Part shown: piece after piece, positions 35,880 to 60,887 of the stretch
Layout of the letters: each line of letters opens with the position of its first letter
Position numbering within the stretch: position 1 is the first letter of the stretch
DNA from: Lytechinus pictus
Taxonomy: Eukaryota
Assembly (NCBI RefSeq): GCF_037042905.1
Contig: NC_087250.1
Coordinates: 27,096,001 to 27,160,000, forward strand
Reading direction: 5' to 3'
DNA: 64,000 nucleotides
The notes under the pieces: model-generated
The model's input: only the letters and a program-made list of their open reading frames with translations
Told to the model about the DNA's origin: nothing
Database searches by the model: none
Position numbers and translations under genes: made by a program

Positions 35880-36389
35880 GGTTACACTTCGTAATTCCGA
35901 AGGTTCTTTATTCCGAAGGTTCGTAATTCCGAAACACATAAATTGCCTATACCTCGATGTTCGTTAATCCGAAAACGAAAAAGGGTTCGTTAATCCGAAC
36001 ATTTGTGGCGTAATTCCGAAGGTTCGTTAATCCGAAAAGGAAATGAGAGTCGTAATTCCGAAGGTTCGTTAGTCCGAAAACGAAATGAGGTTCGTAATTC
36101 CGAAGGTTCGTTAATCCGAAAACAAAATGAGGCTCGTAATTCCGAAGGTTCGTTAGTCCGAAAACGAAATGAACAACGAACCTCATTTCGTTTTCGGATA
36201 AACGAACCTTCGGAACAACGAACTTTATATCGCTTTCGGATTAACGAACCTTCGGAACAACGAACCTCATTTCGTTTTCGGATTGTCGAACTTTCGGAAC
36301 AACGAACTTTATTTCGCTTTCGGATTAACGAACCTTCGGAATATCCGAACCTTTGGAATAACGAAGCTTCGGAATTACGAATGTATACG
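35880..36389. mobile_element. Palindromic MITE built of TTCCGAAGGTTCGTTAATCCGAA subrepeats
   Basis: Subrepeats flip orientation near 36170; AAAAATCC duplicated at 35872 and 36390; removal restores the LINE frame HKNP-YTLV. Confidence 0.88.
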
Positions 36390-36467
36390 AAAAATCCATA
36401 TACCTTAGTAAATACTGTTAATAATGAACTTTTAAAAATCACACAATGGATAAAATCCAACAAACTA

Positions 36468-36974
36468 CGAACGTACAATAAATGCTGCACATTATTCAAA
36501 ATCCATGTCATTTTCACCAAAATTTGCAGAGTTGTAGAGGAAGGTATACCTAAGAGGTACAAACATTAAAAAATAGGGGTTCATGTGCTTGTTTTTAAAC
36601 TATCAGCATTTTTATTAGAGCAAATGTGCTTTTTAAAACACCAAAAATGCGCCGAATGCTTTGTATCTATGTGAAGAAAAAATCAAAACCACTCTACCAT
36701 TTATTCGAACTCGGGGTAATATTCGTGATTCTTTGCAGCACTGCAGAGTAAAGTATTTTTAAATCGTAGAGAATTTGTTTTTGAATGGTCCATGGAATAA
36801 TGCCATTTTTAGCTTCATGAAATAACGCATCGGATATGCAGTTAAAGTGCAGGAGATGAGAAAAATCAGCTCATACCTGGAACTAATTAATCACCTGTTC
36901 ATCCATTGTGACGTCAGCGCGCAGAGTGTAAACTATGCGCAGATCATAATGCGCACAAACATAACTGTGCAACG
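36468..36974. mobile_element. Unclassified ~500 bp insertion in the LINE
   Basis: Interrupts the LINE between SNKL and (S)LNLL; only weak terminal inverted similarity. Confidence 0.5.
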
Positions 36975-39900: not shown

Positions 39901-42900
39901 CAATAATGACACCTGACTGTCCTTTCAACTTGACCAAATGTACAGTATTACTTGACCCTTTAAATACTAGTGTAGACACCAAAATCATATCCCCATAGTA
40001 TATTATTAATGAACTATATTATGTCCATATTGAAGTACCAACAGTCAATTTAGACCCCCTTTTGGAGGCCATCTTGGATTTTTTAACATACCAGTCCACT
40101 GACTGTCCTCGTAACTTGTTCTAATGCATTAAACCATGGTTTTATGATTATGGTTTAGACATCAAAATCATATTCCCCAGACAGATATTGAACAAACTAT
40201 GTCCTAATTTATTATTTGACTCTTGAAAATATGGTTTAGACACCAGAATCACATCTCACAGGCGGATATAGAATGAGCTCTGCCAATTTTTAAGTAACAA
40301 CAGTCAATTTTAGACCCCATTTTGTAAGCCATCTTGCGTTTTTTAACATACCAAACCACCGACTGTCCTTGTAACTTGTCCTAATGCATTACTTGACCCT
40401 TTAAAATATGGTTTAGACACCAAAATCATATTCCCCAGACAGATATTGAACAAACTATGTTTATTTGTAAGCAACATTAGACATTGTTTTATATCTTTTT
40501 TGGAAGCCATCTTGGAATTTTGGACATACAAGACCACCGACTGTCCGTGTAGCTTGTCCTAATGTATTATTCGCCTTTGAAATCATAGTTTAAACACCAA
40601 AATCATATATCACAGGTGAATATAAAATGAGCTATTCCACTTTTAAGTATCAGCAGCCATTTTATAATTATTTTCGGAAGCCATATTGGATTTTCGGACA
40701 TACTTGACTGTCGTTGTAACTTGTCCTAATATTATTAGACTCTTGAAACCAATGATTTAAAGTCAAAATCACTTCCCCTAGGCCAATATGAAATGAGCTA
40801 CGTCCGCTTTAGGTATCAGCAACCATTTTAGATTCAATTTTTTGAAGCCAACTTATGTTTTTGGACATTCCAGACCACTGGCTGTCCCTGTAACTTGGCC
40901 CTATATGTACTATTGATCCTTAATAACCAATGAATAAAAAACAAATTAAAGCCATTTTATCAAGTAATGGATGCGTTTTGGATTTTTAGCCTACGGCAGC
41001 CAGGGAGGGCACCATCTTGGATTTTTCTGTTACCCTGGAGTACTTAATTTTTCTTTTCAACCTTTCAACCAGTAAGGGTATTTTTAAAAATTTAAATATT
41101 TTAATAAGTCTACTTATCATGTAAAATTAGCAGTGAATAGATTATACTTCATGTTGATTAGATTCATAATTATGTTAATTTAAAGAATTATCACAGTATT
41201 TCAAAATCTTCTTCGTCAAAATCTGTAGCGTAATTTTGAGGGGTCCAGATATGATGTATTGAGTAAAATTTATTTTTAAAAGTTGTCAGCTAGCCCAGCG
41301 AAAGAGTAAAACTTTCGAGATTTTTCATTTTTTTTACAAAAATAAAATTTTGTAAAAGATTTTGGGTATAGTATTCGTAAAATAATCATATTTTATCCAT
41401 CTCTCTTTCAGGTTCTCTTTATTTTTTTCTTGGTAATGATTTTTTTTGGGGGGAGTAGGGTTGCAGAATTTCCGGGAATTTTCTTGATGGAATCTTTTCA
41501 TGGGAATAAACGGGAATTTGGTGGGAATTTTTTGAATTTTCGGCAATTTTCAAGAAATGATGGGAATTTTCAAAAAGTAACAATTTTCTGATATATGCAG
41601 AAATTAAAATGCGTACTAGCAGATGATACTTGATAATTCTTTGTCATCAAATTTCGAGCCAAGTATTATGCTAAAACAGTCAGACAAAGCAAAATTTTAA
41701 TGATTTCCATGTAAAAGTTGATTTACTGTATTTACATTGATTAGGAGCTCAAGACCATGTCAACTCCTCAGATAGACTTTTGATTTTGATTTATCAACGC
41801 CTATTATCCCCTTATATATTGATATGATGAACGGCCTTAAAGCACAAATCACACCAAGACGCTTTCTTCAAAATGGCAGCCTGCGAATACTTTGAACGAA
41901 ATTGACCAGCCTCGAAATTAGAGTTTCGGGAATTTATTTGAGCCCAAAAAAGTCTGATATGATTTTTGTAGGTCTTATTCCGATGCCATGTATAATGAAA
42001 TAAGATGGTGCTTATCATTTAGCATGTTTATGTTCAGCACCCTCAAATAAGGGACAAGGAAATAAAATAAACATATTATTTTTTTCAAAATTTGTACTTT
42101 TAAGGGACCATTGGCAACATTGATATTTATCATTATGTTCAAGCATTACCAAATCAACATATCGTAAGAAATCATGCATAACACTTAATGTGATTTTAAA
42201 ATTAAAAGAGTAGGTCAAACCTTACGCATATTAAGTTAATTTTATTGTATTTTCCACCTGTCCATTATCTTGTCAGCCATGTTATTTTTTGGTAAATTAA
42301 ATGTTATTTTATTGCCATGGTAATGCCTTAAGATGTTATTTATACATTAAACAACAGAGATGTACGTGTATGTTTGGCACCCTAAATTTAGTAGAATTGA
42401 ATGAAAAATAAGATTCTACAAGGTATTTTTTTTATCAAAGATGGTATTTTAGGGGGAATAAAATGACCCGTTGCCATGGGAACAGAACATACATTTGTAA
42501 ACATTGATATCAATAGATTCAAGCATATTAAGTTAATTTTATTGTATTTTCCACCTGTCCATTATCTTGTCAGCCATGTTATTTTTTGGGTAAATTATAT
42601 GTTATTTTATTGCCATGGTAATGCCTTAAGATGTTATTTATACATTAACCAACAGAGATGTACGTGTATGTTTGGCACCCTAAACTTAGTAGAATTGAAT
42701 GAAAAATAAGATTCTACAAGGTATTTTTTATCAAAGATGGTATTTTAGGGGGAATAAAATGACCCGTTGCCATGGGAACAGAACACACATTTGTAAACAT
42801 TGATATCAATAAATTCAAGCATTACCAAGGCAACATCAGTTTTTATCATGCTAATGAACTCATGCGGAACACTTACTGTATTTTTTGTTCAAAACTTAAT

Positions 42901-44621
42901 GACTGGTCAAAGTCAAACCTTATGTAGATTAAGTAAATCTTTACGTTACATTCCACCTGTCCATTATCATTACAACTGTGTTAGTTTGTTTTAAAAATTA
43001 TATCTTAATTGGTTGCCATGGCAATGGCTGAAGATGTTATTTATTTATTAACAGCAAGCATATATATGCTTAGCTCCCTAAAATTGGGGCAAATGAAATA
43101 AAAATCAGATTTTACAATTTTTTTGTTTATCAAACATGATACTTTTCTGGGGGGAATGAGCTGTTGCCATGGCAACGGGACATTTGAAACACTAATATTT
43201 ATCATTAAATTCAAGTATTACCAAGGCAACATAATTATCTACTCATACAGAACTCTTACTGAAATTTTTGTTCGAAATTAAATGACCGGCCAAACCTTTC
43301 GCATATTGAGTTATTTGTATTTGTATTTTCCACCTGTCCAAAATCTTGTCATCCAAATCATTATTTTTTAGTATTAGATATTATCTGGTTGCCATGGCAA
43401 TAGCTTCAGATGTTATTTATACATTTTGCATCAAACATATCGATGTTTAGCACACAAAGATTAGGGGAAATGCAAGAAAAATCAGATTCTATAGTCCCTT
43501 TTTTAATCAAAACTGATACTAAATGATCTGTTGCTATGGCAACAGGCCATTTTGAATATTGATATTTATTGTTGAATTCAAGTATTACCAAGGCAACATC
43601 AATGTTTATCATTCTAATTTAGTTCATGCAGAACACTGACTGTATTATTTTCCCCTAAATTAATTGAGTAGGTCAGACCTTACGAATGCACATTAAGTTA
43701 ATATTCATTGTATCTTTCACCTGTTTTTAACCTTATCATCCACTTAAAAAAAAAAATTAGATGTTATTTGGTTGCCATGGCAATGGCTTAAGATGTTATA
43801 TCTATAAAATTTAGTCACAAACATATCTCGATTAGTACCTTGAAATTAGGGAAAATGGAATGATGATCTTACTGTACATGTATTTTACATTTTTATCAAT
43901 ATTTTTACTTTTCTAGAGGGAGATAAGATGTTGCCATGGCAACGGGTCCTTTGCAAAACTGTTTATTTTTAAATTTAATTCAAGCTTTACCAAGGCAACA
44001 TTAATTTTTATCTTTATAAAGAACTCCTGCAGAACACTTTCTGTATTTTTTGCTTCAAATGAGGGGGTCAAATCTTAAGCATACAGATTAAGTTAATTCC
44101 ACTTGTATTTTCCACCTGTCCATTGTCTTGTCAAACATGTTATTTTTGTAAATTAGATGTTATTTGGTTGCCATGGCAATGGCTTGAGATGTAATTTACA
44201 CATTTAGCAACCAAAATATCTTCGATAAGCACTGTAACGTTAGGGGAAATTAAAGATGAATCATATTCTACAACGTTTTTTAATCAAAATTTTTACTTTT
44301 CTGGTGAAAAACAAGCCGTTGCCATGGCAACTGACCAATTGGAACTATCTTGATGATCTTGAATATTTCTAAATTTCATATGTATTCAATTGGGAGCCTG
44401 AAAATTATCATTGTGGTCATCTATATCATGTTTTTTACCATTTATATGGGAATGTATGTTGTTTTGGAGAAATTAATCCGTTGCCATGGCAACGGCCGAA
44501 AATGGCATTTATAAATTTACCTCCCATCTTTAAAATAAATCTTACGGCATATACTAACACTTGTGAAAGTTTCATGCTTTAGTCATAATTTGCACAATTG
44601 TTCGGCTAATCCGCTCTACTA
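37000..44621. mobile_element. 7.6 kb non-autonomous foldback DNA transposon with TAG...CTA ends (Academ-like, inferred)
   Basis: TAGTAGAGCGGATTAGC...GCTAATCCGCTCTACTA, 3 bp duplication ATA, inverted arms over 1 kb, many GTTGCCATGGCAAC copies, no long ORF. Confidence 0.9.
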
Positions 44622-45789
44622 ATATATGCTATTTAGCAATTCCATTGATACACTTCCCATGGACATTGTTTTAGATGACACTAATTTAGAAAGTGTCACA
44701 TTCAATAAATTTCTCGGTGTTACCGTTGATAATAAGCTTCCCTGGAAATACCATATAGATTGTATATGTAAGATTATTTAGCGAAATGTTGGCATTATCA
44801 ATAAACTGAAATATCATTTTTCGTCGTCATCACTTTTAATGCTATATTCTTCCCTGATCTTACCTTACTTGAATTATGGGATACTTGCCTGGGGCAGCAC
44901 CCACCTAACCATTTTAGATATTTATTACTGCAAAAGAAGCCCCTTCGTGTTATTCATAATTCAGCATTTCGTTCACACACTGACCCGCTATTTTTTATAG
45001 CAAATTGCTGAAGATAAGCGACCTATACTTATTTCATTTAGGACAATCATGTTTAAATTTGACAAAAACACCCTTCCACGTGTATTTGATTCTATGTTTC
45101 CTCTTATTTAATCTTGTCATAATTACCCAACTAGGCAATCTAACGAATTTCATTTACCCCGTTTTAGAACTTTATTGGCAAAGAGTACATTTATGTTCGA
45201 TGGCCCTAGATTTTGGATATCCCTCGACAATACAATAACATAAAAAACAGCCCTTCCATACATTCTTAAAAAAAAAAAAAAACGTCTTACCTAAATCCTA
45301 CCGAGGTCTCCATTACTAATTCCCACTCATTATCGTCTCCTCTCAGACTTCAAGTTATTTTTGTTAGTCTTTATCATTTTGTTTTATCCTTTCTTTTCTG
45401 TCGCAATTCGTCCTGATTCTATTTGTTTATTCTCCTTTTGTCGTCCTGTGTTTTTTCCGTTTTATTTTATTCTTGTTTTTGTTTCGTCTTGTTCTGTGGG
45501 TTATCCTGTTCTTTTTAATCTATTCAGTAAATATCCGTAGGCAAATAGCAACCATTGCGTCTCTCTCTTTCTCTCTCTCTCTCCTCTCTTCTCTTCCTTG
45601 AGGGGGGTTCACATTTATACAAGCTATGCTTTTCAGTGAATCTCCCATTTCCACAGATACCTTTCTTCTATCTAAACTACATAATCATAATTTTGTCTAC
45701 AATAACGTTTTGTATTGTATTTATATGTTAATCATCATTAATGTTTTATATCGTAAATATTTGTTATTCTGTTGGAAATCTGAATGTGA

Positions 45790-46895
45790 ATTCTGACACA
45801 ATTGTTAACAAGGCAAAAAGAAAACATAGTAGTACAATCAAAGTTCAAACTTTTCAAACAGTTCATATAGAAATGTAGAAGTCAAATCTATGTGTAAAAT
45901 TTAGGGCCTATATATCATCTTCTTGGAAGGGTTATAACGTATAAGCTCACATTTTAATGAGTCGCCTGAAATTTGAGGCTGCGTAATTTTTTTAACGATT
46001 TTGAATTATTGTCTTGTTGCCTTTCAATCTGCATGTTCATTCAAAGTTTCAAACGTAATAGCTATATATCCTACCTGTGTAACTTCTGTTAAATTAATGA
46101 GAACGTATAAAATGCATTTTGCTTAAAACAACCTCGCTTTTATGCACCATCGAAATTAGAAAGGGCCTAAACATATGCATTTATTAATGGCTCACGAAAT
46201 TACCCGTTATATGCAAATTCACCTATGACATACAGATGAGTGAGATGACATGCTTTCAAAACAAACTTGTTAACTTTAGAAAAATAGGATTAACCGATTT
46301 GGAGAATTATGACGAAAGAAATTTGTCAAATTAAAGTTGATGCGTTACTCAGTTATGTAGAATAGAAATCCCAAGAATATTTGTCTGTGGTATAACTGAC
46401 CTTTGAACTTCTGTTACTTTTTTTTCAGAAAAACTCTGCATAACAATATCAAATGTAGCATTCTGAAATAATTGTTCACTTGGCAAAAAGAAAATATAGT
46501 ACCATCAAAGTTCAATTTTTTTAAACAGTTTTATAACATTCGCTTACATTTTAATGAGTCGCCTGAAATTTGAGGCTGCGTAATTTTTTTTTATACGATT
46601 TTGAATTATTGTGTTGTTAGCCTTCAATCCGCATGTTCATTCAAATTTTTAAATGTACAAGCTGTATATCCAACCTGTTTAACTTCTGTTAAATTAATAA
46701 GAACAGGTATAAAAAAAAACATTGCTTTTATGCTCTATAAAAATTAGAGAGGCCTGAACATATGCATTTATTCATGGCTCATAAAATCACCCGATATATG
46801 CATATTCACCTATCACATACAGATGAGTGAGTTAACTGCTTTCAAAACAGACTTGTCAACTTTAGAAAAAAAGGATTAACTGATTTTGAGAATTG
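45790..46895. repeat. Diverged tandem duplication (~600-670 bp period)
   Basis: ~45790-46310 matches ~46460-46895 with one indel of about 80 bp. Confidence 0.85.
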
Positions 46896-47187
46896 TTTTA
46901 TTTATTTTTTTTTGTTGTTAATCTGTGTTGTCATTTTTTATTGATAATGTATTTGAATAAATGTATCGATTATTTTCTGGAGATATACCGTTTCTTTTGT
47001 CCATGCCCTTATTTAGGGGAGGGGGGGGGGGGGTGACTGTAAAGGTCATCCCCACTTGATTTTTTTTTAAAGGATTTATCCCCCCTCCCCCATCCGCTCA
47101 GGATCGACACCCATGATTATTACTAATGGCATTAAGTTTGATTTTTAATTGTTCCTTCTACAGGTAACCCCAAAGTAGGCAGAAGCC

Positions 47188-47464
47188 ATGACGGAATTTG
47201 ATAATCTCCTGATCAAAGTGGCTAAACAAGTCTTCCTAAACTCGGAAATCGACACATTGGGAAGAGAGCTTGGATTTACTCCTACCGATGTTCAACGTCA
47301 TATAGCAACTAATCTCAAAACACAGAACGTTACTTGGGATGGAACTCTTAACATGCTCCGGGATTGGCGTAAAAGTCAAGAAATTGCAACAGAGAGAGAA
47401 GGTCTGAAGACTGCTCTGAAGAAAGCAGGTCAAATTCGTCTGGCTGATGAACTCTTTCCTCTAA
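47188..47464 (+). CDS. Death-domain exon of a DD-coiled-coil-beta-propeller gene
   Basis: LGRELGF..DVQRH..MLRDWR..LKTALKKAGQIRLADEL death-fold pattern; acceptor TTCTACAG at 47163; in-frame stop before GCCATG; phase-1 donor GTAAGA at 47465. Confidence 0.82.
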
Positions 47465-48037
47465 GTAAGAAAAAAAAATAAAGTGTACAAATCTTATTTA
47501 TTCTGATAAAAAGTTTCAGGCCGCTTTTAAAAATTCATTTCCTGGTATTTTGGTATTAGTACACCGTGCTAATTTATTGTTCTTCTTCTTCTTCTTCCTC
47601 CTTCTCTTCTTCTTCTTCTCAGTCCCTTCTTTTCTTCACCCTTTTTTCTCTTCGTTCCCCTTTTCTTTGCTCCGCCAACGACGGGCCTCTTCTACTATTG
47701 ATCCTTGAAGAAAGAAAATAATTTATTTTCCTAACTTCCCTTCGTAATTCTGTTTAATTCTCAATAAAAATTATCATTTTCTAACTTTTTGTAATGATTT
47801 AATCTTAAGACATCCGGTTAGAGAGGTGTAGTTGTCGAGCACCCGCCTTAGACTGTTAGAAGTTAAAATAGATTGAGTGTTTAAAAAAAAATGGCCCTTC
47901 TTTCTTCTTATCAAGAGAGTAACGTCTTTGAGAAGATAAAAGCACATCCCCTAATTGGCGACCGCTGGGAAATCAGAGGCTAAAACATTCACATTTAAGT
48001 ATTAAATTTAATATTCTTGTTATTTTTTCCGATGTAG

Positions 48038-49617
48038 GTTACTCTGTATCTCAGACTGAAATACATGACAGAGATGTCAAAGCAAAGCGACGCAAAGTCG
48101 AAATTCCTTCTCCGAGTGTCAAAGAAGACGACCAAAAACAACGTGACCGAGACGACACTGGAGACGACATGAGGAAGCAAGTCGATGAGAACATGGACCA
48201 TGATGAGAAACGGGCCATGTTAGAGAAAATTAAACAACCGCGCAAGATAGTTGAATCGAAACTTACGGACCTTTCGAATTCATCAAGTAAGCATCTCGAT
48301 ACAATTAAGGGTGATATACAAGAGACATTGGAAGATATTAAAGGTAATTTTAATGATATAAAACGGAAAAAAAATAAATTGATTAGGGATATTGACAAGG
48401 AGGCAGATAAGGAAATACGAGCAATAAAAGAAAGGCGACAAAAACAGATCGAAGCCTATAAAGGTGAGATAGCACGGGAACAAAAAATAAGCGAAGACAA
48501 ACAAGCTAAATTGTTACCATGCTTGTCAGACACAGATAAAATCAGCGAAATAGTTTCCGACAAGATAATGGATCTTACTGGTAAGATTCCGGATGCTATA
48601 AAGGATAACCAACATGATGAAACATTGGTGAATGAAGCTCCTCAAGTACTTGCATCCATTGATGAAAATTTAAGTTTGAATGTTCATCAAGATGTTAGCA
48701 ACTGCCTTGACCGAATAAAGAGTGAAGTTGAGAGAGTGAAGTTTGTAGAGGGGGAAGTAGGTGGAGAATACTATGGTAGAGTTGATGGGTATATCGGTAA
48801 ATGGGAAATTGCCAAGTCAATCCACATTTCATCGGTTGTTAATAGGCCGCGGGTGCTTGATCTGGTCAGTGATGAAGAAATATGTGTGCAAGACGTACGT
48901 AACAAAGACATGTATATTACAAACATCAACACTCAACACACAGAGAAAGTCATTGATGGAGGTGTGTCGATTACATCTTGTGCGCCCATAGACAGTAACG
49001 TTAAAGTATGTGGTAAGGTGAGAGATTATCGCACGGAAGACAGGTCGGATGTATTCATCACTCTCTATGACAGACAATGGAAGGTGATTAGAGACATCAG
49101 CATACCAAGGGATGGGAAGGGTAATAATGTGTATGTTGGTGTTGACAGGGATGGGATGATCCTCGCTGCTCAGTACAATCGGTCTAATATCTACGTCATC
49201 AATCCTGCTGATGATAAGATAGTAAACGCTATTACGATGCAGGGTAAGGAGGTGATGGGTGGGATACAAGCCTTGTCATCAGGTGATATCGTTGTGAAGA
49301 CAGATAATGATAAATACACTGTCATCTCACGATCAGGAGAAGAGAAGGCTGTCATGCACTGTGATGAGTGGGACTGGTCAGAGTGTCGCGTTGACAAACT
49401 GACAGACACACTCTACATCGCGTACAGGGATGGGGATGAAGCGAGTAATACATACGCAGTTGATCAGGTGTCACGTGATGGTTTCATCCAGGCAAAGAAG
49501 ATCATGAAATACGTGAAATCAGATCGCTCTGACTGGGTCAGCCCTTGTCTTGTTACTCCTTCTGGTAACCTCGTAGGATGTGATGGAGACCAGCTCCTTG
49601 TTTACAAGAAAGTGTAA
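48038..49617 (+). CDS. Linker / coiled-coil / beta-propeller exon (paralogue of 457-2118, no B-box)
   Basis: Acceptor GATGTAG at 48037, phase 1, open to the stop at 49617; spliced product 618 aa. Confidence 0.85.
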
Positions 49618-50073
49618 GTTCCTACCGAATCGTTTTCAGTAACTCATGATATTTCATTCCGCACCAGGCCCGCACTAAAATAGTCATCACCACAAGCATT
49701 CGGTGTGAAGCGCGATTAAAATCTACACATTTGTTCTAGTTTCAAAAAAAAGATATTAGGAAGGGGGCAACGATCCTGTCTGGCAATAAAATCCCCAGTG
49801 CCTCCTACATACTAATGCATGCAAGTGGGAGGGGGGGGGGGGTGGGGGATTCATTTTGACAGAAGGTATAAGTATATGTTAGCTTTCTTATTGCAACAAG
49901 ATTCGTTACTTCCTACATGTAGTAGATCGTTAATGCATCGCGCGATGAAATCTATTGAAAACTTACCCTTAAAATCGGCAATTTGAGCGCTCCTGACGGT
50001 TTTTTAGGGTTATTCCCGTTTAATACCCTCTTTTCAAAGTTTCATTTCCCCAATGTTTTTGTATGTTCTCTAC

Positions 50074-50960: not shown

Positions 50961-52432
50961 TTCTCTACATACCACAGTTGTGTGGATGTACATGTTTAAT
51001 GTTATGCGCATTAACGTCACAAAGGATAAAAAGGCTGGTCACGGTGATTAATCAATTGTAGGCTTCAGCTGATATTTTTTTTATATGATGTGCCTTCCAA
51101 CTACAGATCCGATATTTTATTTCATAAAGCTAATTACAATAGCTGAAAATAATTCATGGACCAATATAAATTTTAAAGGCCACTACACTTTATGAATACT
51201 TCACCTTGAAGTGCTGCAAAGAATGACAAATATTAAGAATTAATGGTATAGTGGTTTGCAATTTTTCCTCACATTGATACAAAGACTCTGGCGTGTTTTT
51301 TTAGCGTTAAATAGCATACTTGCTCCAACAAAAGTACTGATAGCTTGAAAAAAAAAACATATTACCCCGTATTTTGCTTAATGTTTACACCGTTTTAATT
51401 ACATCTTCCTACAAGCATGCATTTTTGTTAAAATAGTATGGATTTTGAATGTACATCATTTAACTTTTCAGATTTGTTAAAGAAATTTCAATCTTTGATG
51501 AAGTATTTTTGTCATCTTTTTTTACCGTTTGAAAGAAATAAAGGCGCCGCTACCCTAAAAGAGCAAACGAATAGAAAATAAATTATCCTTCTTCAGTAGG
51601 CCTAATATAACTATAGTGTACAATTTGATGAAATTTACATGCATCTGGACTCAGAATTAAAGGTTTAAACTTAACATCGTTATTTCTTCGATTCTAAAAA
51701 TGGCAAATCCTGATGTGCAATTCTCGAGAACTTCCAACTGGGTGAACTTTAAAGCAAGTGTAAAATCAAGCACATAAACCAATGCTATATTTTGGATATT
51801 TGAGATATTCAGGTGCTAAAAGTAAGCCGAGATAAACAAAACACACAAAATGAAGTGACGTTCAAAGGGGTGGTAAAGTAATCGGGGCAAACTCCATGCG
51901 CTTGGTTGCGTGGAGGTGTAAGTATTAAAAAGATAATGTCATGCCTATACCATCCTGTTATTTTTTTATTTCACTATCTTGTTTTATAGCAATATCTGAA
52001 AGGTATGGTTTTATGGTTTTATCAGAATATTAGTCTGTAGACTTTGCGAGGGGCCATAGGCCATGTTCACTAGAGGCATGACAGGGAAAATTGTAATTTG
52101 TCTCAGATGTAGTTTATTACATTACTTTAAAATATAAGATAGATGTCTCCAATCTTAATATTGGATATTTTAGACATATCTCAACTCTTTAACCTTTTGT
52201 ATGTCAAAGTTTAAATAAGGCATCGCCGTTCAATTTATAATAAAAATGATAATATATAAACAATGTTTCTTAAAAAACAAATTTATCTCTTACCAAAAAA
52301 AAAATATATCTTTAAAGTATTACTTTGTGAGCACTTTCTTCCCATTTTTTAAATCATATTCTCCACTTTAGCTTCATGGGTTATAGAGAGAGTCTCCAAG
52401 GAATGGGTATGTATTCCTTTTTTTTGCAAAGC

Positions 52433-52468
<36 letters not shown>

Positions 52469-53232
52469 GTTAAATGCACATTTTTTTCATTATTATTATT
52501 ATTATTATAAATATTATTATTATTATTATCATTATTATTGTATATTTAGTGGACTCAGATTGAGGCAAGAATTTCTTTATCAAGTGGCAACTATCGTAAA
52601 GTATGTCCTGACAATAATCCATAATGAATAATCTTCAGATTCAACTTTGGGGCGCCATTTTGATGACATCATTTGGGGATGGGTTTTTCTGGGTAAATCT
52701 TATGTGGAATATTGTAAGGACATACTTTCAAGAAAGTCGAAATTTGCTTGCTATATGAAAGTTGCCAGTTAGTATTATTGTAATTATCAATTTTAAGGTC
52801 ACTTTTTAGCTATTGTATTCCCTTGCTGGCTTATTTACAGTGCACATTACATCTGAGCAAGAAGGGCTCCCTTTTTCTTGTCTGAGTAACTCAGCATGTG
52901 AAATGCCTGATTTAGCTGAGGGCTTAGGTAAGCACCATCAAAGCCTTACATGTGCACGCTTGAGATTGAGCGGGTTTTGGGTGCGTAGTTATGGAACTAC
53001 ACATGTCCGTTTCATTTCACGTGTGAGGAATCATTTCAGGTATCGAGTCCTGACATTTTAAAATGGAAAATCGCCAGCAGTCTGAATATTAAATTTATAA
53101 AAGAGATCCGATCAGGTTGGTGTTATCTCGAAAACTATTGGTTTAGGCAAAAAATGAAATTTGATAAGAAATCGGCCTAAGCACTTTAAGGAAACAAGCT
53201 CACCATCTATAAATATTCTTATTTTGGCAGAT

Positions 53233-53596
53233 ATGGCAGAAATCGGTGGCAGTAGTGTTTCTTCAGCAAAAGCCCATCAGAAAGAAGTTCACACCCTTGA
53301 AAGCAGAGAGGATTCAGGTGATATTCCTGAAATGATTCGAATCACGAAATATGGCATAGAAGTACAAATACCACCAAACAAAGCTTACAGTGCAAAGGAT
53401 ATTACGGTCGAAGTGATTGACGAGGTTCCACCTGAGTTGAAGATCAAGGAAACAGAAGCAATCATTACCTATGGTTTGAAGATGAAGGCGCCTTCTAATG
53501 CAATCTTTGAACATCCAGTTCAAGTGACGATGCCTCACTCTGCTGTATTCAAACAACCAAAGAATGCGGAAATCATATCATACTGTAGGAAAAGTG
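53233..53596 (+). CDS. ZU5-UPA gene, coding exon 1 (ZU5 domain)
   Basis: YGIEVQIPP...FEHPVQVTMPHSA ZU5-like signature; acceptor at 53230, phase-1 donor at 53597; candidate upstream non-coding exon ending 52927 (GTAAGC). Confidence 0.8.
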
Positions 53597-53993
53597 GTAA
53601 ATTGTTTTACATTTTAAAATTCACATTACTCTTTTAAAACGAGTACTGAATTAACACGACATACACGGTAATCCTATCAAATATATGAATAAGGTATTCA
53701 AGTTTTGTATAAAAAACATGAAGGAGAAAAAAATAAATCAAATGATATAAACATATCAATCTTTGTATATTTATTGGCAAATGAACCCCGTCCACATTAT
53801 ATATAAAATGAAATAGAAATAAAGATATGAAATAAAAATGACTGAAAGAGAACGCTGAAAAAACAACTGTCATATCAAAATGTAACAGTTGTTCATTTCC
53901 CCCCACATAATTTCGATATGAACCATCCTGATAAACTAAACAAAGCAGGCAATTAAGGAAAGATGTATTTTGGTGTGTCAATTTCATTTTCAG

Positions 53994-54262
53994 CTTCTGC
54001 AGACTTTGTTGCAATACCTTCTACAAAAGACATCAGTCCTAGGTGTGTGGTAAGAAAAGGGGACCTCGATATCTACTTCCATCACTTCTGCGAATATTGG
54101 TTCGTTGCTGTCCGTGCTGTCTACGACCTGTATAACAAATTCAAGGGAATATTCATTGGAAAGCGCCTTGTCTGTACGCCCTATGTTCCGATACCACCTT
54201 TTCTGAGCAAGATACACATCTTGTTTGTCCATATAAGAGATGCACACAAGGAAGAGGGGGAG
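53994..54262 (+). CDS. ZU5-UPA gene, coding exon 2 (HFC motif, start of UPA-like region)
   Basis: TTTTCAG acceptor, phase 1 to phase 0; DIYFHHFCEYW. Confidence 0.78.
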
Positions 54263-54499
54263 GTTTGTTTCTTTACTTTAAATGATACGATGACACTTGC
54301 ATGAATTTTGGCTTTAACTAGTTTTTGAAGTGGTACAAACTAATGCCTGTAATCAGGCGTGTCGTTGTGCCTTTACCAGTAGGAGGGTGTGGATGCCCTG
54401 ATTACCAACAAATATCGATAGCGATTTCCGGCGTCCAGCTACCATGAATCTTTTACATTCTCCTTGATCACATTTTCTTTCCTCATACCCATGATCAGT

Positions 54500-55370
54500 T
54501 TCAGCTTTTATTGATGGAGGGGGGGGGGGTGGTATTTTCATCAATATTTTTCTGTCGCAGCCGCCGAAAATTGATTTTAATTTTTTGATTTAAGGGGACA
54601 GTCCTAAATAAATTTTCATTGTTAGAAGCATCATAATGCATTTCATGTGATCTGGATATAAATTACCACGTGAGCGCGAAGTGCGAACTCAAAGTTTTAA
54701 ATATTAGCACAAGCTGAAAATTTTGGATATTTTGACTAAAATGCTAATGGTTTTTTATTTGTCTATCTTAAAGCAAACTCAGTTTCTGCATCTGTAATAG
54801 AACAAGCTGTGTATCTCAATAAACATAATGCCAGCGCGAAGCGCGAGTTGAAATTGATGGGATATTTTGACTTGTAAAAAAGTAAACTTTTTTTCATGTT
54901 TTTACATTAAAACAAACTCATATCCTGCATCTGTAATTGCACAATCTGAGTATCTAAATAAGCATAATGCGAGCGCGAAGTGCAAGCTTTTTTTTGTAAA
55001 TAGTTAGACTTGAAAACATAACTTTTTTACATTTTTTTTTTTTTACATTAAAACACATTCAGTTTATGCATCTGTAATTTAATAACCTATTTATCTCGAT
55101 AAACAATGCAAGCGCAAAGAGCAAGATGAAATTTTGATTAACTGACCCGAAAGGGAACAATTTAAGCACAGTCCAACGTGAAGGAAAATGGTTCACTGTC
55201 GGTACAGAAGTACGAGCTCACAAATCTTGATACTTTGATTGAACTATGTGGGCATCTCAATGCGAGCGCGAAGCGCAAGCGGAAATTCTTGATATTTTGA
55301 GGGAAATGTAGGCAACATTTTCACATAATATATGATGCTAGCGCGTAGTGCGAGCTGATTTTTCTTTTGA
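54500..55370. repeat. Interspersed repeat with recurring GCGAGCGCGAAGCGCGAG motif
   Basis: Motif recurs every ~60-170 bp; also seen at ~27020, ~27930 and 50074-50960. Confidence 0.65.
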
Positions 55371-55433
55371 AATTTATACCTACGATCGCTTTAAAAAAAG
55401 TAATTTCACGATGATAGTATGCTAACGATAATA

Positions 55434-58400
55434 CAGTGCGTCCCCCCAAAAAACTATACACTTTTGAAATGGCTGCCAAATAAAAAAATGTTCCACTTTG
55501 GGGGAAAAGTCTTATAGATATGGAAAGCCAATAAAGTCAACTTTCAAATGACACCAAAAAGTTGAAAAACTATTCATGTTTGAGCGAGCACTGCCCACTA
55601 AAACAAAGGGTATGAAAATTAGGGTGGGCTGGAATTGGCCTTCCAATTTCTTTCAGGTTTCTTTGTTTGGTACTTACAAAGTTGAGGGTTATTTGGTGAA
55701 TTAAAGATCAGTTGTGATCAGTTTGTTGTTTGTGACGATTTAATGCGTTATTAAATTGAAATAATTGCAATTTTTAGTGCAGCATTTTGTCTTTATCATG
55801 TGGATCTCAACAATGTGTTCATGAGAGTCAGGAGAAGAGGGGGTAATATGACCTGGGTAGGTGAAGTACGTTGATGGGATAACGGTCAACAGAACATTTA
55901 GCAACCCCTCTCTCCATCTCACCCCCACCCCCCACTTCTCTCCTCCTGAGAGATTAAGCTCGGCTAGGCTGGGCAGGAATTAGCCTTACAGTTTTTGTCT
56001 CACCTGCATAGCAGAGTGAGACTATAGGCGCCGCTTTTCCGACGGCGACGGCGACGGCGGCGGCGGCGTCAACACCAAATCTTAACCTGAGGTTAAGTTT
56101 TTGAAATGACAGCATAACTTAGAAAGTATATGGTCCTAGTTCATGAAACTTGGCCATAAGGTCAATCAAGTATTACTGAACATCCTGCCTGAGTTTCATG
56201 TCACATGACCATGGTCAATGGTCATTTATGGTCAATGAACTTAGACCATGTTGGGGGAATCAACATCAAAATCTTAACCTAAGGTTAAGTTTTTGAAATG
56301 TCATCATAACTTAGAAAATATATGGACCTAGTTCATAAAACTTATACATAAGGTTAATCAAGTATCACTGAACATCCTGCATGAGTTTCACGTCACATGG
56401 CCAAGGCCAATGGTCATTTAGGGTCAATGAACTTTGGCCGAATTGGGGGTATCTGTAGATTTACCATCATAACTTTAAAAGTTTATGGATCTGATTCATG
56501 AAACTTGGCCATAAGGTCAATCAAGTATTACTGAACATCCTGCCTGAGTTTCATGTCACATGACCATGGTCAATGGTCATTTATGGTCAATGAACTTTGG
56601 CCGAATTGGGTGTATCTGTTGAATTACCATCATAACTTTAAAAGTTTATGGATCTGATTCATGAAACTTGGACATAATAGTAATCAAGTATTACTGAACA
56701 TCCTGCCTGAGTTTCATGTCACATGACCATGGTCAATGGTCATTTATGGTCAATGAACTTTGGCCGAATTGGGTGTATCTGTTGAATTACCATCATAACT
56801 TTAAAAGTTTATGGATCTGATTCATGAAACTTGGACATAATAGTAATCAAGTATTACTGAACATCCTGCATGAGTTTCACGTCACATGACCAAGGTCAAA
56901 GGTCATTTAGGGTCAATGAACTTTGGCTGAATTGGGGTATTTGTTGAATTACCGCCATAACTTTGAAAGTGTGTTGGTCTAATTCATAAAACTTGGACAT
57001 AAGAGTAATCAAGTATCACTGAACATTTTGTGCGCATTTTAGGTCACATGACCAAGGTCAAAGGTCAATGAACTTTGGCCATAATGGGGGTATCTGTTTA
57101 ATTACCATTATAACTTGGAAAGTTGTTAGATCTTACTCTTGAAACTTGGACATACAGTAAGAGTAATCAAGTATCACCGAACATCCTGTGTGAGTTTCAG
57201 GTCACATGATCAAGGTCAAAGGTCATGTAAGGTCAATGAACTTTGGCCACGTTGGGGGTATTTGTTGAATTACCATCATATCTCTATAAGTGTATTGGTC
57301 TAGTTTATAAAACGTGGAAAAAGAGTAACCAAGTATCACTGAACATCTTGTGCGAGTTATAGTGCTGCTATATGCTGCTATATTGAATCGCGTGATGCAG
57401 GTGAGACGGCCAGAGGCATTCATCTTGTTTGGAGTGGTCAGTCATTTAGAACTTGCAAAGCTAAGGGTGTTAAGCTAAATTAATGAGTGAGATAAGTTTT
57501 GGTTTCTTAGGCAAATTTCACGAGTTACTAAATTGAAATTTAACGCATGAGTAACCAGGAGTTGTAATTTTAGTGGAGCATATTCATCTTGTGGACCTCA
57601 GAAGTGTGTTCGTGAGAGTCAGAGTAATGTGATGGTGCCTGTTACAAGCAAGAGGGCGAGATACGCTTAGAAGGCTTGGGTTAAAATGGAATTCCTCTTT
57701 GTTTTGTCGTTTTACAAATTAAAAGTCATATGGACCCTCCCTTCGCCACCTCCATTTCCTAGCCCCCTCCTTCTCTTTGTCTCACTTCCTGGATTGTAGC
57801 CTATTCAAAACTAAACTGCCAAGTTACCGGTGGCTGATGGTCAGATTTTTTTATTGAATCATTACCAAGAAATTTAATGATTATGATGATTAAGGAAATC
57901 ATTTATTGAAAAAAACCCTGAATGTTTGATTGATCACATTGCACATTGAATGAGTTGATTTGCTAATAAATTGTTGATTAAATGATTGATAGGAAAAAGT
58001 TGATGCCCTAATTCAGAATTTATCATTAAATCAACATTCTTCTCTGGACTTCACGCGTACATGACAATAGCCACCAGTCTCTCAACAGGAGGGGAGGGTG
58101 GGAAAGAGGGAGGGGGTGTGTGCTAAATGTTCTGTTGACCCTTATTCCATCACCCTGCTTCTCCCACTTAAGTCCTATCTCACCCCCATATTCTCCAGAC
58201 TCCCATGAACACATTGCTGAGATCCATATGATAATGTTGAAATGCTGCCCAAAAAGGGATCCAAATGATAAAGTTGAAATGCTGCCCCAATAGTATAATA
58301 TGTCTTCCCTCATGCATTAAAGTTCAATTTAATAATTTATAAAATTTGCTTAAGCAACCAAAACTGGTCATGGTTGATCATTAATTCATCACAACGCCCT

Positions 58401-58656
58401 TAACTTTGCAAGTTTAAAAGGAATTGCCTCTCAAAAACTGACACAAATTGAAAGGCTAATTCCAGCCCACCCTAATTTTCATACCCTTTGTTTCAGTGGG
58501 CAGGGCTCGCTCAAGCATGAATAGTTTTCCAACTTTTTGGTGTCATTTGAAAGTTGACTTTATTGGCTTTCCATATCTATAAGTCTTTTCCCCCAAAATG
58601 CTACATTTTTTATTTGGCAGCCATTTCAAAAGTGTATAGTTTTTTTGGACGCACAG
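55434..58656. mobile_element. Non-autonomous Tc1/mariner-like element
   Basis: TA|CAGTGCGTCC...GGACGCACAG|TA with ~210 bp TIRs. Confidence 0.85.
55992..57430 (+). mobile_element. Helentron-associated (HINE/DINE-1-like) element with internal tandem array
   Basis: T-run start, subterminal IR GTCTCACCTGCAT / ATGCAGGTGAGAC, (GAC/GGC)n microsatellite, ~8 units of ~163 bp, short 3' palindrome, TTT end. Confidence 0.8.
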
Positions 58657-59840
58657 TAGTTAAGCATTACACATATTCTTTAGTCAGTCCGGCATGGGTA
58701 TTCAAATTATTTCCAATATTTCTTTTATATTGCCTGGCGTTACTTACTTGTTGATAATGCTTGTTGAGTGTGTTTTATTTGGATTTTGATAATGTGTAAT
58801 TTTATATAACCGAATGTAAAATACTCTCTCAGTGTTTTTTTTTCCATGAGGGCTCGCATGCCTCTGGGCGATAGTACTGAATTTTACTTTTGCAAGCCCT
58901 GTCCCATAGAAGAAAACATTTTCTTAGTTTGTTATTATCTTCTTTTATTTTCTAATTATCCATATTTAGTTATTGAATTTCAAATTGTATTTTTGTAATT
59001 ACGTTGTACAATTTTGTACGTTTCTTTATGGCCAAATAAATAATAATAATAATAATAAATTGACTTTATGTTACCGACAAAGATAATGGAACTCAATAAG
59101 ACGATGTAATAGCAAGGGACATGAAACGGTTGGAACAGCCATGCATGACCCGACAGTTTATCATTTTCCTGACAAGCGTCAGTCCAACAGCCCTGCGCTT
59201 GCGTAACAATTTATTATTTTACCTACATCTCAGACTCTGCGTTTTTACACCGACAAAGGTTTAATTAATCATAACCTTATATACCCATTTCCTTCTTTGT
59301 GTCTTCCTCTCCCTCTTTGTCCCTTTCTTTTTTTATTTGTCTTTCTAAGGAAGAATCTTCCTTTCTTTCTTTTTTCTCTTTTTCCTTTCTTTCTTCCTTC
59401 CTTCCTTTTTCTTTCCTCTTTTATCTATTTTTTCCTACTCACTCCTTTTTTGTTTATTTTTCCCGACGGCAGCGATCATTTACCGACGATTACCGACGAA
59501 ATTAGGGGGGGGGGTGTCGCACCCCATATCCCCCTTTAGCGACGGCCCTGCTTGTAGTGTGCCCCCCCCTCCGAAAAACAAGATTTTGCATGACAAAATT
59601 CGAGGACGATAGTCGAGAATTATTAGATAAGTGTGGGCGATTCGTTTTGTCAAGACGGGCCTATGATGGTCAATGCACACCTGGCAAGCCTTTTACGACT
59701 AGTTCAAGACCGGTTCACATAACTTCTCGCGATTCTCTACAATTTTCACTCCCCCCCCAAAAAAAAAATGCACAGTTAGGCTAAAATATAAACAAGGCAA
59801 TTTACAAACCATCATCCGATATTATACCAGGTTTACATGT

Positions 59841-60887
59841 ACACCAAAACTGAATTCTCCCGAATAAATTCGGACAGATTTTGCCCGAATATGGCCTAAT
59901 TTTGATGGATTCGGAATCTATTCGTTTCTGATTTGGGAAGCTCCCTGAATCAATTCGGGAGAATTCTGGAGTATTCTGAAAGATTTGGGGAACATTTGTG
60001 AAGGAATTCGGCTCATTTTGAAATATTCAAAACCAGCCGAATTCCTTCCAAAATACTCGCGAATTCTGCCACAAAGAATTTAATTTGGGCCACATTCTGG
60101 ATAAAATAAGGATTGATTCTGGGAGGCATTTTTGGAATTCTGGGAAGTAATCTTTCGCAATAATTGTGCTCCGATTAGGGACCTATATTGGACTGGTTTG
60201 CCTCTAATCATGCTAATTCGGTCCAAAATTATTCGGGATAATTCGGATTGAATATAAACCTTGATTTAGTGCCTGGGTTAATCCCGTGTTACACCAATTT
60301 TAGCCAAATTCAGCCTATAAATTCGGAATGTTTCGGTGGATTAGAGAATGTTTCAAATCCTTCCTGACCTTTCTCCCAATCGCTAAGAGAGAACGAATAC
60401 TCCCGAATTAACCAGATTACATGTATTCAGATCCGGTGTCACCCAGCCTGTACACATGATCCTAATCAGATGCGAATCCATCCGAATTCCACATGCTTGG
60501 GATCATAAGTTAGTATGTTGTTCTCTCTCCCTGAAAGCGAAAAATGCAGAAGGGAATTAGGAACGTTTTTGGACGAGTTCGGCTCGTTTTGAAATCTTAA
60601 AAATCACCCAAATACCCTAAAAAATGCTCGCAAATGTGATTAGGACAAATTTCATTAGGACCAAAATCGAAATGTTGTCTGATGTAATTCGGTTGGATTC
60701 GAGGCATTCGAGGTTATTTGGGCTGTCTTTTTTACTAATTCAGCTCTGAATCGGATCCTATTCCAGACCTATTCGTCTTTGATTCGCGTGTGAATGAATA
60801 GTGTTCAAATTCACCGAATCCATCCGAATCAGGCCATATTCGGGCAGAATCAGATCGAATTTATTTGGGAGAATTCGGTTTTGGTGT
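59841..60887. mobile_element. TIR element with CACC...GGTG ends, GAATTC-rich
   Basis: ~75 bp imperfect TIR ACACCAAAACTGAATTCTCCC; superfamily unresolved. Confidence 0.7.

Follow-up and report, generated by a model that had tools for sequence, protein, structure and literature searches.

How does a protein family built on one propeller-bearing scaffold come to carry different signalling domains at its front? The question is raised by a gene at positions 47163 to 49617 of a 64,000-nucleotide stretch of the Lytechinus pictus genome (C6:27,096,001-27,160,000; assembly of 812 Mb in 368 contigs), here called the window, which holds a sea-urchin gene cluster with retroelements interspersed. A first-pass annotation, made from the letters alone, had read this gene as a Death domain joined to a coiled coil and a beta-propeller, i.e., as a swap of the N-terminal module on a TRIM-like scaffold. 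Here, we find that the Death-headed locus is a real, transcribed sea-urchin gene, and we are highly confident of its architecture (Death domain, a linker that is most likely a dead B-box, coiled coil, and propeller) and of the splice that joins the first part to the rest. With less assurance, we consider it probable that the gene belongs, with an altered head, to an echinoid expansion of RING-less B-box/coiled-coil/propeller proteins, with a stepwise origin and a mechanism based on clustering.

Exon anatomy of the Death-headed gene

Two exons encode the predicted product. The ATG of the Death exon lies at 47188, with no earlier in-frame ATG behind the TAG at 47176-78, and the exon ends at 47464 after 92 codons plus one nucleotide, i.e., in phase 1, with GTAAG directly 3' of it; the exon has a 5' acceptor too (AG 47161-62, junction 47162/47163), which the first-pass annotation had not noticed. 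The big exon begins at 48038, again in phase 1, after AG 48036-37, and the codon split between the exons (A and GT) encodes Ser. From there the frame stays open to the TAA at 49615-17, which gives 92 + 1 + 525 = 618 residues. The exon coordinates and the split codon agree with the phase-1 joint and the 618-residue frame without a B-box that had been described earlier, and the charged linker with its basic cluster (KAKRRKVE) is indeed seen in the sequence at the place where a neighbouring gene, gene 1, has its B-box. The features on which the argument draws are as follows:

47163 to 47464, + strand: Death-domain exon (AG 47161-62, ATG 47188, donor GT 47465)
47465 to 48037, + strand: intron of 573 nucleotides, GT..AG, with a CTT-rich simple repeat inside
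48038 to 48160, + strand: charged linker with the basic cluster, at the B-box position of the family; probably a decayed B-box, with 1 of 9 Cys/His kept
48229 to 48591, + strand: coiled coil (exon-product residues 64-184), predicted to pair with itself in antiparallel fashion about a dyad close to residue 126
48578 to 48757, + strand: hinge, near-identical family-wide; old 5' sequence gives way here to homogenised 3' sequence, and the conversion breakpoint falls inside it
48736 to 49614, + strand: predicted six-bladed NHL-like beta-propeller, 293 residues (AlphaFold2 and structure comparison; dN/dS > 1)
46915 to 48699, + strand: recent gene-conversion tract by sequence comparison with the paralogue at C6:26.15 Mb, which is on the opposite strand
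430 to 2118, + strand: gene 1, B-box/coiled-coil/propeller without RING (ATG 457; acceptor 429/430 homologous to 48037/48038)

Gene 1 serves as the reference for the unmodified form. Its product (P0012, 553 residues, no RING) begins 26 residues ahead of a B-box that Pfam zf-B_box recognizes above its cut-off (E 1.5e-5). Exons of gene 1 had been suggested as something to look for upstream of the window; P0012 is complete inside the window, and no upstream coding exon is needed.

The splice between Death exon and propeller exon

No run recorded as RNA is listed as containing this stretch; four sequence sets were examined for transcripts, namely two raw RNA runs (X16 and X17, of each of which about 6/100 was read) and two contig sets (X1 and X12), which come from two studies and whose RNA nature was judged by exon and intron depth. 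Contigs of both X1 and X12, i.e., of two of the four runs, contain the junction 47464 to 48038 (GT..AG, 573 nucleotides skipped), and the same junction is used by the NCBI models, both for the window gene (P0210, 100% identical to the window) and for its paralogue at C6:26.15 Mb (P0001). The splice proposed in the first-pass annotation is therefore found in contigs and in gene models, with no junction read in the raw runs.

The two contig sets speak to different copies. In X1, the exons are covered and intron depth is zero; at 47315 and 48367, its 795-letter junction contig has A and G, respectively. A contig of the same set has a loose end before 47163, which shows that the 5' acceptor of the Death exon is used; these 95 letters have no match in the window, so the upstream exon lies outside it. 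The contigs of X12 continue unspliced upstream. Those X12 contigs that have the letters of the window at 47438, 48058, and 48367 reach depths of 20.1 at the end of exon 1 and 21.9 at the start of exon 2, and a contig spanning the intron, also with window letters, has a depth of 2.1 compared with about 12-22 on the exons. We read these X12 depths as mature, spliced message with a small share of unspliced precursor.

The head is a Death domain

The 92-residue exon product was modelled with AlphaFold2 from an alignment of 28 paralogous exons and forms six helices (predicted local distance difference test, pLDDT, 93.7). Searched with Foldseek, this model has death domains in 15 of its 16 top-ranked matches, mostly with template-modelling (TM) scores of 0.66-0.73, and the death domains matched include those of FADD, ankyrin-G/-1, p84, Fas, PIDD/RAIDD, RIPK1, Pelle/Tube, and TNFR1. 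An ankyrin structure (2yvi) stands at rank 19 with TM scores of 0.76-0.78, and CARDs appear first at rank 26. A profile made from the 28 paralogous exons matches the Fas death domain (E 4.5e-4), and the Pfam Death family (PF00531) matches 23 of the 28 exons at E <= 0.01 (best 5.4e-8) and the window copy at E 0.0019 (18.7 bits; cut-off 22.6). Judged by the model and these matches, the exon product is a Death fold and is nearer to DD than to CARD, DED, or PYD, and the HMMER and Foldseek searches on the 92 residues thus bear out the death-fold assignment made earlier.

The exon belongs to a large exon family with at least 150 matches in the L. pictus genome, and its closest named relatives are urchin TIR-Death-Death and ZU5-Death-Death proteins. 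Matches to the exon type cluster densely on C8 (about 23-42 Mb), C26, and C19.

A probable decayed B-box and a predicted TRIM-type coiled coil

We aligned 99 family proteins of at least 500 residues, i.e., P0210 cut to its 618 residues plus the relatives of exon 2, with the tandem model P0002 excluded. In this alignment, 93 proteins retain 8-9 of the nine B-box Cys/His, one (P0109) retains four, and five retain one. The five low-ligand proteins are P0210 and P0001 (both with Death), P0004 (Death plus TIR-like, 795 residues), P0005 (TIR-like, 699 residues), and P0003 (a partial model), and all of these head-modified forms have a charged linker at the B-box position. Aligned locally with the B-box at the protein level, the linker scores 41, compared with 23.8 +/- 4.1 for shuffled sequences, and 5 of 2000 shuffles match that score. 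At the DNA level, the linker has no signal against the B-box region of gene 1 (717 of 1000 shuffles give an equal score). Taken together with its position, the linker is probably a decayed B-box. Its basic cluster has what we take to be the look of a classical nuclear-localisation motif. Pfam RING families match neither exon product of the Death-headed gene nor gene 1, and among 50 scanned relatives they give three matches (one each), in distant ones only.

Behind the linker, the coiled coil was modelled as a homodimer with an interaction prediction score from aligned errors (ipSAE) of 0.53, where the best of three controls reached 0.00; the runs share at least 52% of their contacts, and partner pLDDT is at least 64. 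Contacts between residues 104 and 151 and between 126 and 126 place the two chains antiparallel with a dyad near 126, and the interface spacing is of the a/d type. On a microbial benchmark, the mark used for calling dimers is passed by 21 of 30 solved one-chain pairs and by none of 23 solved single chains; for eukaryotes it is passed by 17 of 29 pairs (7 of 16 for animals) and none of 30 single chains, and by 1 of 7 without an older solved relative. The model suggests that the coiled coil is a TRIM-type antiparallel homodimer, a likeness and not a proof.

The propeller resembles TRIM-NHL domains

The C-terminal 293 residues are modelled as a six-bladed propeller of 25 strands (pLDDT 95.2; predicted TM score, pTM, 0.92). 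When the model was compared with 48,161 chains, the top six were all TRIM-NHL domains, with a root-mean-square deviation of 3.0-3.4 over 246-264 aligned residues and Z-scores of 24.0 for Mei-P26, 23.1 for Brat, 23.0 for TRIM2, 22.1 for Lin41, 21.9 for TRIM71, and 21.8 for NHL-2. The best propeller from outside the TRIM proteins has a Z of 21.2, which leaves a small margin over other six-bladed propellers, and sequence identity to the TRIM-NHL domains is 12-17%. NHL is absent from the 25 listed Pfam families (29 matched) across the 50 scanned relatives. As modelled, the propeller is six-bladed and NHL-like, and TRIM-NHL domains are its nearest counterparts. Variability in the propeller sits in short patches between conserved strands. 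Together with the B-box of gene 1 and the antiparallel dimer model, this result supports the TRIM-like scaffold that had been proposed for the gene.

One propeller type behind four kinds of head

The product of exon 2 has 113 protein matches at E <= 0.001, the named ones of which are all from L. pictus, L. variegatus, and Strongylocentrotus purpuratus, and the propeller alone finds 104 cluster representatives among 1.84 billion. In the L. pictus genome, 84 pieces match, 72 of them without an internal stop, and they are concentrated on C6 (22.9, 26.1-26.3, and 27.0-27.95 Mb), C13, C16, and C8. A typical member has about 550 residues, starts directly at the B-box without a RING, and is annotated only as "uncharacterized protein". 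Four kinds of head stand on the one propeller type, i.e., B-box, Death, Death plus TIR-like, and TIR-like.

Exon phase suggests how these heads were joined. Death exons leave the frame in phase 1, P0004 has a TIR-like exon of phase 1-1, and the big exons start in phase 1 at a homologous acceptor, which we find in the Death-headed gene (48037/38), in gene 1 (429/430), and also at the loci L010, L013, and L011; the acceptor homology with gene 1 that had been noticed before is therefore real and extends to three further paralogues. The acceptor of gene 1 closes an intron in the 5' untranslated region (5'UTR), 27 nucleotides ahead of the ATG, and the sequence from acceptor to ATG is open, in phase 1 and in frame, so that a phase-1 exon arriving upstream would be in frame from the start.

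One locus preserves what may be a transitional form. L011 (C6:27946800-27951000) has an intact Death exon (27947498-27947774, donor GTAAGA, phase 1) and, about 1.1 kb downstream, a 548-codon big exon (from L011:2095) with the homologous acceptor and a B-box that keeps most of its ligands; none of the 220 proteins compared matches it at 95% identity or more. We regard L011 as a candidate intermediate of the order Death/B-box/coiled coil/propeller. Since it keeps a Death exon along with a B-box, exon capture followed by decay of the B-box in place would describe the history better than a clean swap. The N-terminal module swap proposed in the first-pass annotation thus stands insofar as the same propeller type occurs behind different heads joined through phase-1 exons, and falls insofar as no cassette appears to have been exchanged, the Death exon having been added and the B-box having decayed where it was. 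Similarly, the suggestion of one variable sensor wired to different outputs agrees with the family in that one propeller type has different heads, while "sensor" and "outputs" name roles that these parts may have.

Sister genes carry a further module. L010 (C6:27202800-27212700) and L013 (C6:27857000-27866000) have a TIR-like exon; P0004 has a single TIR-like exon of 525 nucleotides, phase 1-1, between the Death exon and the big exon, i.e., in MyD88-like order; and in P0005, the TIR-like exon provides the ATG and a Death remnant with stops lies upstream. The TIR-like exon matches Pfam TIR_2 at E 0.005, below the cut-off, and its look-alikes in the Atlas are TIR clusters (feature scores 0.90-0.93, TM 0.62-0.70), which serve as leads only. 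A profile of this exon finds one match among PDB sequences, to an unrelated protein at E 0.64. When the TIR-like exon of P0004 was searched against 46000-50000 of the window (tblastn), nothing better than E 0.83 was found, and the Death-headed window gene is accordingly read as lacking a TIR exon.

At least four loci show a Death exon that precedes, by 0.6-7 kb, a big exon opening at the shared acceptor. The arrangement is broken at C6:26320330-26321855 (six stops in the big exon), 26140322-26147191, and 27027230-27039957, and one broken locus is annotated as the 200-residue P0213. Such broken sister loci point to birth-and-death turnover in the head-modified subfamily.

The two halves of the gene evolve separately

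We compared six genes by the Nei-Gojobori method, namely the Death-headed window gene, gene 1, the 26.15-Mb paralogue, and the P0004, P0005, and L011 loci. In the linker and coiled coil, synonymous divergence (dS) is 0.22-1.69 and the ratio of nonsynonymous to synonymous divergence (dN/dS, omega) is 0.31-0.74, the converted pair (dS 0) being excluded; in the propeller, dS is 0.05-0.17 and omega is 1.15-1.85 in all 15 pairs. For the pair of the Death-headed gene and gene 1, the coiled coils differ by a dS of 1.44 and the propellers by one of 0.08. The Death exon has an omega of 0.43-0.65 in the four pairs of usable dS other than the pair of the window copy with a pseudogene, for which it is 1.22.

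Trees of the two halves differ accordingly. In a coiled-coil tree of 40 rows (the five head-modified forms and the first 35 B-box forms of the alignment), the five form one clade with a support of 99.6 in the Shimodaira-Hasegawa-like approximate likelihood ratio test (SH-aLRT). The propeller tree scatters them, so that five changes are needed, and pairs P0004 with a B-box form at 99; forcing the five together costs 35.5 log-likelihood units. By plain identity, the propeller of the Death-headed gene has its nearest counterparts among B-box forms: it is 81% identical in amino acids to that of P0007, a B-box form, is 87-90% identical in nucleotides to about 20 loci at C6 27.0-27.95 and 22.9 Mb, and is 79% identical in nucleotides to that of the Death paralogue.

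A very different picture holds for the 5' half. Over 46915-48699, which covers the upstream flank, Death exon, intron, and coiled coil, the window differs from the 26.15-Mb paralogue by nine substitutions and three indels in 1785 nucleotides (99.5% identity), compared with about 88% in the flank to the left and about 79% in that to the right. There is no mismatch from 48368 to 48699, and the first one after 48367 is at 48700. Based on these sequence comparisons, 46915-48699 is a recent gene-conversion tract that ends in the hinge and whose partner lies about 1 Mb away. At the hinge (48578-48757), identity to gene 1 climbs from 0.65 to 0.98, and hinge DNA is 90-98% identical among genes whose coiled coils are about 50-65% identical; the family-wide switch in dS falls at this hinge, which would be either a hotspot of recombination or an element under strong constraint. 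We had considered that a newly copied 5' half might have been joined to a propeller already in place, making the gene a recent chimera, and rejected this: homology to the paralogue persists in both flanks of the tract, and conversion between two older Death-headed paralogues is the better fit. A special 3' breakpoint at 49610 was also dropped: within the 300-850 nucleotides of 3' flank that the compared loci include, the 3' flank of gene 1 likewise matches no other family locus, and homology therefore generally ends at the stop codon. Overall, these comparisons suggest that the two halves evolve separately, with the signalling halves old and apart and the recognition halves exchanged and diversified.

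Proposed origin and mechanism

We infer the following order of events. The starting point would be a B-box member with a 5'UTR intron, whose acceptor, open in phase 1, lay 27 nucleotides before the ATG. A phase-1 Death exon of the type used in urchin multi-Death adaptors may then have been captured upstream, which would give a stage like L011, and the B-box, now redundant, would have shed the residues that bind zinc. Between the Death exon and the big exon of sister genes, a TIR-like exon of phase 1-1 would have been inserted, and in one of these genes the Death exon would later have decayed. The propeller would be drawn from a pool common to neighbouring B-box and TIR-like forms, with changes mostly at the protein level. 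The transcript of this copy can also run on, by way of a donor that overlaps its stop codon, into a downstream ZU5 gene that has another death-like end.

Antiparallel TRIM dimers put their two N-terminal heads at opposite ends of a rod, and Death domains signal as multi-copy helical oligomers, e.g., in the Myddosome, the PIDDosome, and the Fas-FADD complex, some of which are represented among the Foldseek matches of the Death model. In the mechanism that we propose, dimerisation through the coiled coil would give a rod that carries a Death domain at either end, and the propellers would offer variable surfaces for binding. As two separated Death domains cannot nucleate a helical assembly, we infer that signalling would need clustering of dimers; several dimers might be gathered on a multivalent or repetitive target, just as the RING and B-box heads of TRIM proteins need clustering. 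The clustered Death or Death plus TIR-like heads could then recruit death-fold or TIR partners, such that the head would decide the pathway. Whether the gene acts in this way as a sensor-adaptor in immunity or cell death is a tentative proposal, which we hold to be possible and somewhat less probable than its opposite.

Several observations weigh against the preferred reading as a whole. Regarding the transcript, X1 and X12 have no RNA status on record, the long X1 junction contig has the letters of the 26.15-Mb paralogue and therefore documents the splice of that paralogue, and the X12 junction contig (depth 20.9) has only 28 nucleotides on its shorter side; X16 and X17 gave two reads each, none at the junction, which are too few to inform and indicate low expression. 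Regarding the parts, the Foldseek E-values of the Death model are all 0.087 or higher (weak E-values are usual for helical domains of about 90 residues), the Death match of the window copy is below the curated Pfam cut-off, Pfam NHL (PF01436) has no match at E <= 1 in the exon product, the relic signal of the B-box is weak (5 of 2000 shuffles, with nil at the DNA level), and the dimer call for the coiled coil may reflect memory of solved TRIM dimers. Regarding evolution, omega above 1 in the propeller is a pairwise whole-domain estimate from pairs that are not independent; Fisher tests for dN > dS give p 0.04-0.12 in five tested pairs and are not significant pair by pair; a single propeller clade of the head-modified forms is not formally rejected (p 0.064 in the approximately unbiased, AU, test); and Death-head forms are seen among L. 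pictus records only, with some copies already decaying.

Alternative readings

The alternative that survives best concerns the 3' end of the transcript. A donor GTAAGT at 49614-19, which had been missed in the first-pass annotation, overlaps the stop codon, and it is used by P0210, a model of 1081 residues that splices from 49613 to 52372-52406, then to 53230-53613 (ZU5) and 53990-54265, with further exons at 61002-61118, 62793-62966, and 63582-63743 and then beyond the window. The features concerned are as follows:

49614 to 49619, + strand: alternative donor GTAAGT over the stop TAA 49615-17 (P0210 model, X12 contig); its use skips the stop
52372 to 52406, + strand: 35-nucleotide linking exon of the read-through form (AG 52370-71, GT 52407)
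53230 to 63743, + strand: exons of the downstream ZU5-bearing gene (P0210 tblastn), the last part of which is outside the window

On this account, the main product would be the 1081-residue read-through form, a composite adaptor with Death, coiled coil, propeller, and ZU5 followed by a death-like C-terminus, i.e., with death-fold modules at both ends, and an N-terminal swap would be only part of the story. We see this as quite possible and place it just short of an even call. P0210 agrees with the window exon by exon (95-100% identity, tblastn), the 35-nucleotide exon has a proper acceptor and donor, and an X12 contig that leaves the window sequence at 49613 continues for 218 letters, the first 29 of which equal 52373-52401 exactly; depth in X12 falls from about 22 in the exon to 4.4 just past the stop. 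Given this use of the stop-overlapping donor in P0210 and in the contig, the 618-residue frame may be a minor product of this copy. The ZU5 domain is recognized by Pfam in the open reading frame (ORF) at 53158-53637 (E 2.2e-5, 25.1 bits, cut-off 21) and with 21.0 bits on the whole of P0210, which ends in a death-like segment whose last approximately 100 residues are outside the window; Pfam finds no UPA and no second Death in P0210 at E <= 0.05.

The read-through evidence, however, is one contig from one run, and paralogues add to the depth seen at 49519-49615. The paralogue model P0001 (622 residues) and all B-box members terminate at their own stop codons, which indicates that the stand-alone Death/coiled coil/propeller form is a genuine family architecture. 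The downstream gene also has its own in-frame ATGs at 52376 and about 53233 and may therefore be transcribed and expressed alone too, and read-through from one gene into the next is frequent, its products often minor.

Unlikely, but worth weighing next, is that the gene is a young by-product of birth-and-death and conversion in a tandem cluster, with low transcription, no specific function tied to its Death head, and decay ahead of it. The restriction of Death heads to L. pictus records implies that they are young and fits this explanation, as do the three or more broken sister loci (C6:26.32, 26.14, and 27.04 Mb), the decayed Death exon upstream in P0005, and the low raw RNA read counts; relaxed constraint would also give a whole-domain omega near or above 1. 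In contrast, both exons of the gene are intact, the Death exon has the low omega given above between intact copies and exceeds 1 only with the pseudogene copy (0.43-0.65 vs 1.22), the omega of the coiled coil is 0.3-0.7, and 72 of the 84 family pieces are stop-free. The propeller scaffold is likewise conserved (pLDDT 95), with its variability concentrated in short patches.

Slightly less probable again is that the gene is a classical TRIM-NHL-like RNA regulator, in which the Death domain would be only a module for oligomerisation or localisation and the protein no immune sensor. The nearest solved folds are indeed RNA-binding NHL domains (Mei-P26, Brat, TRIM2, Lin41, TRIM71, and NHL-2), and the basic cluster of the linker presumably resembles a nuclear or RNA-contact motif. 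However, identity to these domains is 12-17% with Pfam NHL undetected, and other six-bladed propellers score nearly as high (Z 20-21). Classical TRIM-NHL proteins are also few and conserved, whereas this family is large, lineage-specific, and tandem, with a propeller dN/dS above 1.

Lastly, the notion that annotation or assembly is at fault and that the Death exon belongs to another transcript, which the paralogue letters in the sole long junction contig (X1) and the lack of a recorded RNA status for the runs might encourage, is highly improbable and already close to refuted, since the same canonical, phase-matched junction occurs in two runs from two studies, the arrangement of Death exon and big exon recurs at four or more loci, and the intron was co-converted with both exons in one 1.8-kb tract.

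Comparison with known systems

The preferred reading, a head-modified member of a RING-less B-box/coiled-coil/propeller expansion, has relatives in several described systems. The closest in layout are the TRIM-NHL proteins (Brat, Mei-P26, TRIM2/3, TRIM71/Lin41, and NHL-2), in which a zinc-finger region is likewise followed by an antiparallel coiled-coil dimer and, at the C-terminus, by a six-bladed propeller. They differ in that the family members were read without a RING and the Death-headed gene has no functional B-box and a Death domain in front, and in that the family here is large, echinoid-specific, and fast-evolving, with NHL undetected by Pfam.

Fish finTRIM and NLR genes reportedly share B30.2 sensor exons. 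These genes (PMC2657112, PMC4852459) are reported to resemble the urchin family in having a fast-diversifying sensor behind different scaffolds, shaped by duplication, exon shuffling, conversion, and positive selection; they differ in their B30.2/SPRY sensor, in their RING-B-box-coiled coil and NACHT scaffolds, and in belonging to another phylum.

The closest in logic are perhaps the lineage-specific DED-TRADD-N-WD40 proteins of amphioxus and oysters (Kaur, Iyer, Burroughs and Aravind 2021, PMC8195603). In that paper, high propeller variability is noted as pointing to recombination, and direct recognition of invader molecules is proposed. Those proteins, as described there, likewise pair a constant death-superfamily head with a variable propeller and have expanded in particular lineages, while differing in their DED and TRADD-N heads, low-complexity linker, and WD40 propeller; the urchin gene has instead a Death head (or Death plus TIR-like in its sisters), a TRIM-type coiled coil with a B-box relic, and an NHL-like propeller. 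A term search of PMC8195603 finds "NHL" 0 times and "B-box" twice, neither B-box passage concerning a Death/coiled-coil/NHL-like architecture.

Two further likenesses concern parts only. The sister P0004 places a Death exon before a TIR-like exon, which is the order of MyD88, but continues into a coiled coil and propeller, and the window gene has no TIR exon. The ZU5-UPA-Death proteins (ankyrins, UNC5, and PIDD1) share with the downstream exons the ZU5 domain and with P0210 a death-like end, but lack the N-terminal half made of Death, coiled coil, and propeller. Full-text literature searches, which covered few subscription journals, found no description of this family or of a Death or TIR domain combined with a coiled coil and an NHL-like propeller.

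Significance

Sea urchins are a classic case of huge expansions of innate receptors (TLR, NLR, and SRCR). According to a 2008 comparison, urchin expansions, unlike those of amphioxus, bring few new domain combinations (PMC2575513). The present locus shows that new combinations do exist in an urchin, and because the Death, TIR-like, and propeller parts of the family fall below Pfam cut-offs, such combinations escape domain scans. The cluster also keeps what appear to be stages of the process, i.e., the B-box form and its 5'UTR intron, a Death exon beside a B-box, Death with a dead B-box, Death plus TIR-like, and TIR-like with a decayed Death exon, and these document the capture of phase-1 exons, the loss of an old head, and separate regimes for the signalling and recognition halves.

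A broader hypothesis goes beyond the gene itself: the family might be a set of undescribed echinoid cytosolic receptors, TRIM-like antiparallel dimers with hypervariable NHL-like propellers for non-self that have been rewired, in one lineage, from a B-box to direct death-fold and TIR signalling through Death, MyD88-like Death plus TIR, and TIR heads, with propeller cassettes exchanged at the conserved hinge by gene conversion. We rate this as speculative and, in its full form, rather unlikely. If true, the same recognition repertoire feeding alternative signalling pathways would be a natural experiment, and the locus would record, step by step, the birth of a sensor-adaptor fusion from a 5'UTR intron. 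L. pictus is a tractable laboratory urchin with genetic tools, and the hypothesis of one repertoire with different heads would be directly testable there.

Other features of the window

Transposable and repetitive sequences fill parts of the window outside the genes. Just upstream of the Death-headed gene, 41000-44623 is taken up by a high-copy repeat, some 3.6 kb long, that occurs dozens of times across many contigs at 94-99% identity and is evidently a young transposable element; a search of the upstream region (41000-47200) was swamped by this repeat and is uninformative about the gene. Successive long ORFs at 10923-16009 look gag-like, protease, reverse-transcriptase, and integrase-like and are of the long terminal repeat (LTR) retrotransposon type, as judged by eye. 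The ORFs at 23382-24035 and 35383-35967 resemble fragments of non-LTR reverse transcriptase, and a tandem peptide-repeat ORF at 35990-36569 is open on both strands. On either side of the Death-headed gene, at 46990-47035 and 49825-49850, similar long G-runs lie in related-looking sequence and may be parts of a repeat family.

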